Of a stretch of 64,000 nt of DNA, positions 14,560 through 15,417 are shown piece after piece. The DNA comes from an uncultured Gammaproteobacteria bacterium (lineage in GTDB: Bacteria; Patescibacteriota; Microgenomatia; Levybacterales; UBA12049). Within the stretch, counting starts at the first letter, position 1. Each line of letters starts with the position of its first letter. Location: assembly GCA_965230895.1 (NCBI GenBank), contig OZ246394.1, forward strand, positions 29,723-93,722, in the 5' to 3' direction. Position numbers and translations under genes: made by a program. Below the pieces are notes generated by a model. That model had not been told where the DNA came from, did not search any database, and saw nothing but the letters and a program-made list of their open reading frames with translations.

Positions 14560-15417
14560 TTGACTTATAACATTGACTCAGGTATAGTGCAGCAAGATTC
14601 TGCACCACGTGCTTTTGCTGGGTCAGGTGAAGGTCCTGTTCCTGCGCGACTGAAAGTTCGAGCTTTAACGGTAACACCCACAACAGAAAGATCTACAAGA
14701 CACATTGTTTCTCCAGCAAAATCTGGAGAGGGGAGAGAACCGTCTCGAACATCACATCCAGAACAAGCTACTGAAAAACCTTCACCAATTCCGAATAACA
14801 GCAAAGGTGCCCCAAAAGAACCAACAGCCGTCTATGTAAAACCTGAATCAGATGGTGCTGTTCCAAAAGATACTAGTGCAGCTCCAAAAAAAGGTATCTC
14901 TCAAGAGGAACTGCTTACTGCATTTGAGGCGCATCGGAAAGAGTTATTTGGCACAGCGCTTCGAGTAACTGGTAACTGGCAGGATGCTGAGGATCTTATG
15001 CAAGAAACATTCGTTAATGCATCACTCGCGGCTGATAATTATGCACACGGGAATATAGGCGGCTGGTTCCACAGAATATGTGTTAACCGTGGGTTGGATA
15101 TGCATCGAAAAAACGGTCGGAATCCCGTAGAAATGCCAGATGATGGAGCTCTGCCAGAACCCTTAACGATTAATGAACGTTCGTTGGGTGACCCGGAAGG
15201 ACATATGGAAAAAATGGAAGTAGCTGCAGAAGTTAAAGGACTTTTAGCGCAAGTTCAGCCAGAATTTGCAGATCTTGTATTAATGGCTGATGGATACGAT
15301 TTGACTTATGAGCAAATTGCTGCAATTAAGGGTAGACCCATCGGTACAATTAAATCAGGAATTCATAGGGGAAGAGCGAGACTAAGAAGTCTTAAGCGGG
15401 ATCAAGCTACAGAATAA
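14560..15417 (+). CDS. ECF-type sigma-70 family sigma factor with island leader
   Basis: Leader 'AFAGSGEGPVPARLKVRALTV...RHIVSPAKSGEG'; sigma region 2 'AEDLMQETFVNA...WFHRICVNRGLDMHRK' and region 4 'LTYEQIAAIKGRPIGTIKSGIHRGRARLR'; start codon uncertain (TTG/GTG). Confidence 0.7.
   Translation: MTYNIDSGIVQQDSAPRAFAGSGEGPVPARLKVRALTVTPTTERSTRHIVSPAKSGEGREPSRTSHPEQATEKPSPIPNNSKGAPKEPTAVYVKPESDGAVPKDTSAAPKKGISQEELLTAFEAHRKELFGTALRVTGNWQDAEDLMQETFVNASLAADNYAHGNIGGWFHRICVNRGLDMHRKNGRNPVEMPDDGALPEPLTINERSLGDPEGHMEKMEVAAEVKGLLAQVQPEFADLVLMADGYDLTYEQIAAIKGRPIGTIKSGIHRGRARLRSLKRDQATE

Follow-up and report, generated by a model that had tools for sequence, protein, structure and literature searches.

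Sigma factors sharing an N-terminal leader with every product of a variable island in a window assigned to Saccharibacteria

Why would two sigma factors of different types begin with the same peptide? The question is raised by a 64-kb stretch of contig OZ246394.1 (the window, meaning the whole stretch of DNA analyzed), which contains an island of contiguous genes including one for a sigma factor of the extracytoplasmic function (ECF) type and one for an RpoD-like, or SigA-like, sigma factor. An initial annotation had attributed a common leader to both proteins and offered two readings: either the island brings a transcription specificity of its own, with the leader regulating the sigma factors, or the sigma factors are themselves cargo of a leader-dependent process, such as delivery into another cell. 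We found the leader on all 18 proteins of the island, so it is not a sigma-specific tag, and we discuss below whether it could be an export signal.

The two sigma factors and their common leader

The open reading frame (ORF) 14560-15417 encodes a complete ECF (group 4) sigma factor made of sigma2 and sigma4. Its parts are as follows, with confidence given as the predicted local distance difference test (pLDDT) and leaders delimited by a hidden Markov model (HMM).

14560-15417, plus strand: tagged ECF sigma gene, 285 aa, TTG start (Pfam Sigma70_r2 and Sigma70_r4_2, NCBIfam; exact protein P0001)
14560-14724, plus strand: leader, residues 1-55, ..PRAFAGSGEGPVPARLKVRAL..TRHIVSP (leave-two-out HMM; pLDDT about 50)
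14725-14889, plus strand: disordered P/S/T/K-rich linker, residues 56-110 (pLDDT 44-55, no secondary structure)
14890-15129, plus strand: sigma2 domain, residues 111-190 (Sigma70_r2; pLDDT >90)
15226-15411, plus strand: sigma4 domain, residues 223-284 (Sigma70_r4_2; pLDDT >90)
48968-49573, minus strand: comparator, an untagged ordinary ECF sigma factor outside the island (NCBIfam sigma70-ECF 76.5 bits; no leader)

The ECF type that had been proposed for this protein was borne out by Pfam Sigma70_r2 (residues 122-187, E value 3e-13, 49.7 bits against a cut-off of 24, profile positions 2-70 of 71), by Sigma70_r4_2 (residues 228-275, 30.8 bits against 25.7, positions 7-54 of 54) and by NCBIfam sigma70-ECF (54.3 bits against 42.9), and Pfam gave no match to r3 or r1, corresponding to sigma3 and sigma1.1. 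The top named families are actinobacterial, SigE PRK09647 (NF007229; 110.6 bits) and SigH_actino (80 bits), and neither score reaches the respective cut-off (265 for NF007229), so the protein is not a member of a named equivalog. Likewise, its top plasmid-database matches come from Tsukamurella, Nonomuraea and Nocardia (E values 1e-21 to 4e-22), with proteobacterial ones at about 1e-10. The comparator, which is the third sigma factor of the window and is adjoined by isoprenoid genes, has its top plasmid-database matches in Firmicutes and Proteobacteria and not in Actinobacteria. Such a pattern would suit a fit of the tagged ECF protein to an actinobacterial core enzyme. The TTG start of the tagged gene stands at the exact position of the ATG in its paralogs, with a TATAAT box ending 4 nt upstream (14550-14562), and no recognizable anti-sigma gene adjoins it.

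The second ORF encodes a SigA-like protein composed of sigma1.2, 2, 3 and 4 and an extra winged helix-turn-helix (wHTH) domain.

36121-37494, plus strand: tagged SigA-like sigma gene, 457 aa, ATG start (Pfam r3/r4, SigA alignments in the PDB, AlphaFold2 and Foldseek; exact protein P0121)
36121-36294, plus strand: leader, residues 1-58, MAIGESF..GGRSFSASIPEGTPPPLRKVVSP..ARRVVPLPSP (leave-two-out HMM; pLDDT <50 at residues 6-87)
36415-36990, plus strand: sigma1.2/sigma2/sigma3 core, residues 99-290 (pLDDT >90; aligns with SigA regions 2.2-3)
36742-36807, plus strand: degenerate region 2.3/2.4, residues 208-229, NFFMLASLSAQSEVNSVIRGQH, W dyad missing (columns compared across 80 relatives)
37087-37317, plus strand: sigma4 domain, residues 323-399, recognition helix rewritten (Pfam Sigma70_r4; pLDDT >90)
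37330-37488, plus strand: extra C-terminal helical/wHTH domain, residues 404-456 (HTH_11; helices 404-422, 432-439 and 443-456)

Its RpoD-like nature, also claimed at the outset, was supported by Sigma70_r3 (32.7 bits against 25.3) and Sigma70_r4 (25.3 against 24.1), by a phmmer alignment of residues 186-387 with SigA/RpoD chains of the PDB, and by the AlphaFold2 model built on 86 sequences. In this model pLDDT exceeds 90 at residues 99-290 and 323-399, and Foldseek matched it to SigA chains over more than 300 columns (E value 4e-9, probability 1.0). The Pfam region 2 match is partial (profile positions 19-49 of 71) and stays under the cut-off of 24 at 17.8 bits. The protein belongs to neither the RpoD nor the SigB/F/G equivalog: its top score, 66.8 bits with the SigB/F/G family, is far under the cut-off of 234, and RpoD_Cterm gives 41.2 against 354. 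The HTH_11 match of the extra domain reaches 25.4 bits for a cut-off of 25, at residues 418-455 (423-460 on the 462-aa ORF).

Region 2.2 is kept (DLEQAASLGVLQAAENFDP against DLIQEGNIGLIRAVEKFDP). As the initial annotation had noticed, the aromatic region 2.3/2.4 that melts the -10 element is replaced: it reads FFMLASLSAQSEVNSVI, differs from the consensus of 80 relatives and has lost the W dyad; the melting block itself is FFMLASLSAQSEV. Equivalents of Y430, Q437 and T440 (E. coli numbering) are also absent from it. The initial description, with regions 2.1/2.2, 3 and 4 well conserved, is correct and only slightly understates the change in the surfaces that contact DNA: the 4.2 recognition helix is also rewritten (TPQSISLIS against TRERIRQIE), on a fold retained in the model. 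An exhaustive phmmer search of 1.84 billion representatives returned two closer relatives (E values 2e-30 and 2e-29) and otherwise generic sigma factors, and a metagenome scan with the sigma alignment returned generic sigma factors only. The PHROG sigma families match both tagged proteins, and the exact proteins P0001 and P0121 are on record in the NCBI contig and in several Logan assemblies.

Sixteen ORFs align across an N-terminal peptide of about 45-55 aa, with the consensus M-x2-3-(N/R)-x-E-x-(F/G) ... (R/G)(S/T)F-x3-6-(E/D)G-x-PPP-x1-2-(R/K)(R/K)(I/V)VS(P/L); one or two extra copies of R-x-(I/V)-V-S-P often follow the core. We built a profile from 14 of these leaders, with both sigma factors omitted, and ran it on 1069 six-frame ORF segments. 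The RpoD-like protein scored 42.0 bits (E value 4e-12) and the ECF protein 17.8 bits (E value 1.6e-4), while all segments from outside the leader genes stayed at or below 10 bits. These comparisons uphold membership of both proteins in the sigma-70 family, a non-canonical region 2.3/2.4 and the homology of the two leaders. The profile also recovered two extra carriers, a small ORF (21823-22170) and a 1152-aa ATPase (16943-20401, minus strand), and the leader accordingly covers 18 of the 18 genes from the first to the last:

10087-38717, no strand assigned: island of 18 contiguous leader-tagged genes (leader alignment and HMM, GC content, synteny break relative to the closest genome, L005)

The domains behind the leader are unrelated: an ECF sigma factor, a SigA-like sigma factor, a HerA-type ATPase and 15 orphans. 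Identity among leaders at the first, second and third codon positions is 0.42/0.48/0.38, and identical residues use the same codon only 45% of the time, which indicates that selection acts on the leader as protein and not as DNA; a conserved RNA or DNA element was rejected, as this codon test speaks against it. The leader is consistent with an intrinsically disordered segment as judged from AlphaFold2, since residues 6-87 of the RpoD-like protein have a pLDDT below 50 and residues 1-110 of the ECF protein are modeled with low confidence, both devoid of secondary structure. None of the 18 proteins has a transmembrane segment or a signal peptide (the 19-residue Kyte-Doolittle mean is at most 1.49), and the RR(I/V)VSP motif is followed by polar residues and not by a hydrophobic h-region. 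A Sec or Tat signal peptide was therefore rejected, the hydrophobic segment being missing in all 18. A double-glycine leader or a leader of ribosomally synthesized and post-translationally modified peptides was also rejected, given proteins of up to 1152 aa and no matching motif. Mis-called start codons do not account for the leaders either, given the -10 boxes 5-8 nt ahead of most leader ATGs. The 18 proteins contain 0-3 cysteines each, most are acidic, and they share no C-terminus; the tag of this island is N-terminal.

Promoters, related islands and the island ATPase

If the island supplied its own transcription specificity, its promoters could be expected to differ from those of the other genes. 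In the island as among housekeeping genes, the ATG of most genes is preceded at a distance of 3-12 nt by a TATAAT-like -10 box, which is often TGn-extended (for example at 36105-36115, 34597-34607, 7940-7955 and 62960-62975), with no Shine-Dalgarno spacing. This distance implies leaderless mRNAs, which the organism appears to use generally, and the related islands described below (L005 and L085/L086) have the same architecture. A complete promoter precedes the RpoD-like gene:

36082-36116, plus strand: promoter module TTGACT-N17-TGTGATAAACT (ends 5 nt before the ATG of the RpoD-like gene; repeat family D5)

Further copies lie at 34574-34608 and 37494-37528. The search for island-enriched motifs that had been suggested yielded a single one, a TGTG-extended -10 with 6 matches against 0.76 expected, all ahead of leader genes; it is a variant of the housekeeping type, partly explained by the repeated promoter module. 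An ECF-type GGAAC-N15-18-CGTT motif had no match in the window against 1.1 expected. The likeness of island and housekeeping promoters argues against island-specific transcription, and there is no sign that the island needs a sigma factor of its own. The first of the two initial readings is thus left without support, both by the shared promoter type and by the presence of the tag on all 18 proteins.

By its sequence, the window is assigned to a Saccharibacterium (TM7): the nearest relatives of its ProS mostly bear Saccharibacteria or Saccharimonadales labels. Some genomes with a ProS 66-94% identical are labeled Gammaproteobacteria, Bdellovibrionales, Nevskiaceae or Dormiibacterota, which are probably taxonomic mislabels of metagenome bins. 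Saccharibacteria in culture are epibionts of Actinobacteria and have an essential type IV secretion system (PMC10633639; PMC12857230); published work describes this system as universal and essential across the phylum. No substrate of this system is named in PMC10633639 and PMC12857230, including a December 2025 review.

The closest genome in our collection, L005 (CAZDOJ010000001.1), has a ProS 94% identical and is collinear with the window through proS and a P/T-rich anchored protein, after which the genes differ. At the same chromosomal site it carries an island (12108-20849) in which all five readable proteins end in ..(D/I)W.G.(D/E)D..GP.(R/K)(S/T)L*. The L005 homolog of the first island protein of the window (10087-13053) is 34% identical, aligns from residue 57 on and has no N-leader. 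The skeleton of the L005 tail (aromatic, acidic-Gly, Pro, basic, Ser/Thr, Leu) is loosely like the core of the window leader, and one of the C-tagged proteins is a flavoprotein resembling pyridine-nucleotide-disulfide oxidoreductases.

A third island was found on one 44.5-kb Logan contig (SRR30654424; L085 1-21449 and L086 1-12529), where at least 19 consecutive genes end in a tripartite tag, ..(I/V)(F/Y).(R/K)YG(I/V)(E/D)..10-20 aa..E(I/V)(D/E)E*. At least five of their products are sigma-like (P0127, P0135 and proteins of 670, 382 and 493 aa), with homologs of both window sigma factors at 31% and 23% identity; P0127 is one of the two closer relatives of the RpoD-like protein. Also tagged are two multi-wHTH proteins and homologs of one cargo domain from the window and one cargo from L005. 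An alignment of four sigma homologs makes the exchange visible: the window protein is longer by about 95 residues at its N-terminus and lacks a tail, and P0127 lacks an N-extension and is longer by about 90 residues at its C-terminus, ending in the tag. A screen of about 170 loci for shared termini found arrays only in the window, L005 and L085, the other flags being shadow-ORF artifacts of 70% GC sequences. The three islands thus differ in their tags, which are unrelated to one another and may stand at either end of the protein, and overlap in their cargo families. That homologous cargo can bear another tag at the opposite end indicates, at the level of sequence, that the tag is a modular, interchangeable address label.

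An ATPase was seen in two of the islands, those of the window and of L085/L086, and each of the two ATPases bears the local tag.

16943-20401, minus strand: tagged 1152-aa HerA/FtsK-superfamily ATPase (Pfam DUF87, PADLOC mad8, Walker motifs, leader)

Its leader reads MSNHETGRG..GRNISFSGAETTPTRPPIRSL. The window ATPase matches Pfam DUF87 (26.4 bits against 23.2) and PADLOC mad8 (3e-12), with weak matches to SXT_TraD (20.7 against 366) and VirB4 (16.7 against 643); Walker A (residues 427-434) and Walker B (LTVLDE, around residue 680) are intact, there is no transmembrane segment, and a PDB sequence search gave no match. Its best relatives are 'ATP-binding proteins' of Actinobacteria: Streptomyces, Embleya, Nonomuraea or Nocardia account for 22 of its 24 plasmid-collection matches (24.6% identity over residues 217-834), and a Streptomyces clavuligerus homolog (L169, 8533-11391) shares an operon with an ADP-ribosyltransferase. 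The 1879-aa ATPase of L085/L086 is VirD4/TraG-like (T4SS-DNA_transf 24.3 against 20.1, TraG-D_C 25.9 against 22) and has no membrane anchor. Regarding the window gene call, the mechanically called ORF (16943-20815, minus strand) extends 138 codons upstream of the real start and overlaps the divergent 20474-21817 (plus strand), and the public call of 1160 aa starts 8 codons upstream of the leader-consistent ATG at 20401.

Export signal or intracellular tag

With a probability of about one half, we read the leader as a signal for export or translocation and the sigma factors as cargo, possibly aimed at a host RNA polymerase. A signal of this kind would best account for a peptide that is terminal, disordered and interchangeable, that stands on many unrelated soluble proteins encoded next to an FtsK/HerA/VirD4-class ATPase, and that belongs to an obligate parasite of cell surfaces; export, its route and the action on host polymerase are inferred. 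The tag would mark every product of a fast-evolving island for one common fate, and would be recognized by a dedicated FtsK/HerA/VirD4-class ATPase pathway exporting proteins through the phylum's type IV secretion system or a related route, out of the cell or into an actinobacterial host. The sigma factors would then be cargo and not island regulators. The ECF protein, with its complete sigma2-sigma4, could load on the host core RNA polymerase and redirect it, and the SigA-like protein could serve as a competitor or, by means of its extra wHTH, as a retargeting subunit, a role suggested by the core-binding surface kept, the melting and -35-contact residues lost and the wHTH gained. This agrees with the second reading of the initial annotation, which is the better fit given the modular tag, the VirD4/TraG-type ATPase in a related island, the epibiont group and the actinobacterial ECF matches; the export itself is the part of it that we only infer. 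A fuller version, in which the epibiont would export tag-addressed sigma factors and DNA-binding proteins into its actinobacterial host and reprogram or jam transcription by the core RNA polymerase, seems rather unlikely as a whole.

Several observations weigh against export. The sigma factors may bind the RNA polymerase of the cell itself and not that of a host. No secretion-channel gene lies within the window, and the short contigs reached through the genes at the window edges contain housekeeping genes, with none for secretion. The window tag is N-terminal, whereas the known signals of type IV systems stand at the C-terminus. The window ATPase resembles the HerA/mad8-type ATPases of actinobacterial conflict operons, has no detectable similarity to the L086 coupling protein and, like the latter, lacks the canonical VirD4 membrane anchor. 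Both ATPases bear the tag, which is odd for a motor that recognizes it; the tagged ATPase could be one more cargo protein, or motor and substrates could share the tag as a motif for docking. The GC content at third codon positions (GC3) of the island is native-like or lower than that of housekeeping genes, with no sign of recent transfer from high-GC hosts. Finally, the transcript of the ECF gene is apparently leaderless and its TTG start is weak, and poor translation is expected from a UUG start on such an mRNA; the gene may be weakly expressed, dependent on read-through from 13118-14524, or decaying.

Known systems offer partial parallels, the closest of which, by analogy, would be the signals of type IV effectors that depend on a coupling protein and the N-terminal packing leaders of contractile injection payloads. 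Type IV effectors are read by a VirD4/TraG coupling protein, as in Xanthomonas X-Tfe/XVIPCD, the E-block tails of Legionella Dot/Icm effectors and the BID domain plus charged tail of Bartonella. Like them, the island comprises a hypervariable set of unrelated domains sharing one unstructured or modular terminal signal, an FtsK/VirD4-class ATPase adjoins the array (with Pfam cut-offs passed in L086), and the acidic L085 and basic L005 C-terminal tags resemble known tail signals. The cell-attached lifestyle and the essential type IV system of the phylum also agree (PMC10633639). Unlike them, the window signal is N-terminal, the ATPases are tagged and unanchored, the window ATPase is HerA-like and not VirD4-like, channel genes are not adjacent, and the cargo consists of sigma and wHTH proteins and not toxins.

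Payloads of the Photorhabdus virulence cassettes (PVC) carry N-terminal packing signals of about 50 aa and depend on the Pvc15 ATPase. The island resembles these systems by a disordered N-leader of about 50 aa on unrelated proteins encoded in a row together with an ATPase, but the window has no sheath, tube or baseplate gene by Pfam and PHROG, and the ATPase is of the HerA/FtsK type and not AAA+; contractile injection systems are not known in Patescibacteria. Phage-encoded sigma factors, the N4 virion RNA polymerase and T4 capsid-targeting sequences bring transcription specificity into another cell. A sigma-family protein could capture a foreign core RNA polymerase in a similar way, with an N-terminal peptide directing it into a delivery vehicle, but neither virion genes nor viral relatives were found, and the island sits in a cellular chromosome and uses the promoters of that chromosome. 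Mycobacterial PE/PPE proteins and other type VII substrates also combine a conserved N-module with variable C-domains, a one-genome expansion and an FtsK-like ATPase; the N-domains of PE/PPE are folded helical hairpins with a YxxxD/E signal, unlike the disordered tag of the island, which has no WXG100 partners. Finally, ECF41 and ECF42 sigma factors have C-terminal regulatory extensions and, like the island protein, combine an ECF core with an appended segment and no adjacent anti-sigma gene. The island extension is instead N-terminal, disordered and common to 17 other island proteins, so it is no regulatory domain specific to sigma factors.

A different fate for the tag would be inside the cell, as a docking or control signal read by a hub. 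Such a hub could be a protease, a chaperone, a polar scaffold or the island ATPase, and by binding to it the island proteins would co-assemble, be sequestered or be conditionally degraded. In that case the sigma factors would serve the bacterium's own RNA polymerase, and the tag would be a built-in anti-sigma tether released, for example, on host contact. This main rival is possible, if doubtful. It agrees with the absence of a secretion channel from the window, with a window ATPase like the cytoplasmic HerA-type ATPases of conflict systems, with ATPase and cargo bearing the same tag in both ATPase-bearing islands, as fits a mutual assembly motif, with repeated R-x-(I/V)-V-S-P motifs that look like multivalent binding sites or phospho-sites, and with an ECF factor that needs some other control as no anti-sigma gene adjoins it. 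However, a reduced genome would be spending 18 genes here, and at least five sigma-like genes in L085/L086, on self-regulation, for island genes that require no special sigma factor and with an RpoD-like protein deprived of melting residues. Moreover, sister genomes (94% ProS identity) differ fully in the tag, even in its terminus, which is easier to understand with an arms race or an island-encoded receptor than with a conserved hub.

The tag could also serve packaging or co-transfer with DNA in a mobile or virus-like element, whose sigma factors would launch its transcription in a recipient; T4 capsid-targeting sequences, the N4 virion RNA polymerase and the proteins that are translocated in conjugation would be the models. 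FtsK/HerA/VirD4-class ATPases are the DNA pumps of conjugative and some viral systems, both sigma factors match PHROG families, the island is hypervariable at a single chromosomal site and a direct repeat of the 5' end of a DHH-family gene flanks a two-gene sigma cassette. Against this, Pfam on the 18 proteins and PHROGs on 10 of them revealed no integrase, relaxase, capsid, portal, terminase or tail protein, both sister genomes carry an island at the same site between conserved genes, and that of the window uses the chromosome's own promoter type with a native-like GC3. In IMG/VR scans the ATPase had no relatives and the sigma factors only generic ones, which weakens the prophage idea in particular, and we regard a mobile element as quite improbable. 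Least probable of all, with very little in its favor, is a functionless relic, a leader spread by duplication or gene conversion of a 5' module of promoter plus start. It would explain why the D5 promoter module and leader DNA are repeated together before three adjacent genes and why the TGTG-extended -10 occurs only ahead of six leader genes. Yet DNA identity of the leaders is low (38-48% by codon position) and their residue pattern is kept despite frequent synonymous changes, the leader is in frame on 18 genes of unrelated families, and each of two other islands has independently retained a tag of its own on all its genes.

Returning to the export reading, the literature searched on Saccharibacteria and Patescibacteria secretion, effectors, signals and exported sigma factors gave no published description of such tag arrays. 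The 'effector gene cluster' of the TM7x literature was considered as the same system and set aside, as it appears to be a VirB2-like pilin cluster instead. What would be new here is a putative arsenal of tagged effectors in which the signal is N-terminal, the ATPases are tagged as well and the cargo includes sigma factors. If sigma factors do pass from one bacterium into another, they would be interbacterial 'sigma-factor effectors', a new effector class and a cellular counterpart of sigma takeover by phages, and the essential secretion machinery of the phylum would have its missing substrate set in the tag arrays. Patescibacteria, including Saccharibacteria, account for a large part of the bacterial diversity that is uncultured and exploit host bacteria. 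Tag arrays beside FtsK/VirD4-class ATPases would provide a list of candidate effectors and a candidate signal that can be fused to a reporter, and the recurrent sigma and wHTH cargo suggests an undescribed interbacterial control of hosts in which the host polymerase receives a foreign sigma factor. Should the role of the tag be purely intracellular, a switch of both sequence and terminus between sister species would still be an unusual case of modular protein addressing.

Other island genes and their surroundings

The remaining genes of the island, all leader-tagged, are the following.

10087-13053, plus strand: cargo, 988 aa, 34% homolog of a C-tagged L005 protein
13118-14524, plus strand: cargo, 468 aa
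15418-16881, minus strand: cargo, 487 aa
20483-21817, plus strand: cargo, 444 aa, divergent from the ATPase gene
21823-22170, plus strand: small ORF, 115 aa, weak leader MRESFRDGK..RAFANTSGAEGAPPPLL (12.4 bits; 10.2 with the leave-two-out profile)
22231-23103, plus strand: cargo, 290 aa, top leader-profile match (58 bits)
23121-24926, plus strand: cargo, 601 aa
25038-27833, plus strand: cargo, 931 aa, net charge -98, three RR(I/V)VSP copies
27992-28753, plus strand: cargo, 253 aa
28827-30128, plus strand: cargo, 433 aa, paralog of 37533-38717
30131-31156, plus strand: cargo, 341 aa
31299-32990, plus strand: cargo, 563 aa, C-terminal domain homologous to two C-tagged L085 proteins
33048-34568, plus strand: cargo, 506 aa
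34615-35835, plus strand: cargo, 406 aa
37533-38717, plus strand: cargo, 394 aa, last island gene

The island content is essentially orphan by sequence: the ECF sigma factor, the ATPase and the cargo of 988 aa had no close match beyond themselves in word-indexed homolog searches, and tblastn of two orphan cargo proteins against plasmids gave no match. The 931-aa cargo also contains internal tandem repeats near 26912-27066, with spacings of 36 and 72 nt.

The island extends over 28.6 kb between proS and the P-T-rich anchor gene on one side and the DHH gene on the other, among housekeeping genes (frr, rseP, pgl/zwf/gnd and proS; dnaX, prs, recR, cysS and others). Its GC content is 43.2%, against 39.8% in the remaining window. 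GC3 of the island genes (0.22-0.28) is below that of the housekeeping genes (0.31-0.34), so the GC excess reflects amino-acid composition and not recent import; a recent transfer from a high-GC host was rejected given this low GC3.

At the right edge, an 83%-identical copy of the first 65 or so nt of the DHH-family gene (38767-38831) lies at 35904-35968 (plus strand), upstream of the RpoD-like sigma gene. This direct repeat (repeat family D6) brackets a cassette of two genes, the RpoD-like sigma gene and 37533-38717, suggesting that the island grows by insertion at that site. On the left, 9193-9990 (minus strand) directly adjoins the island and encodes a P/T/S-rich protein with one C-terminal hydrophobic anchor; the sister genome has kept it (75-88% identity), and the variable region has its left edge there. 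Finally, the unannotated gene 603-1937 (minus strand, 444 aa) is only 26% identical to its L005 counterpart (2701-4008) amid adjoining genes at 85-94%, and is a second fast-evolving gene, outside the island.

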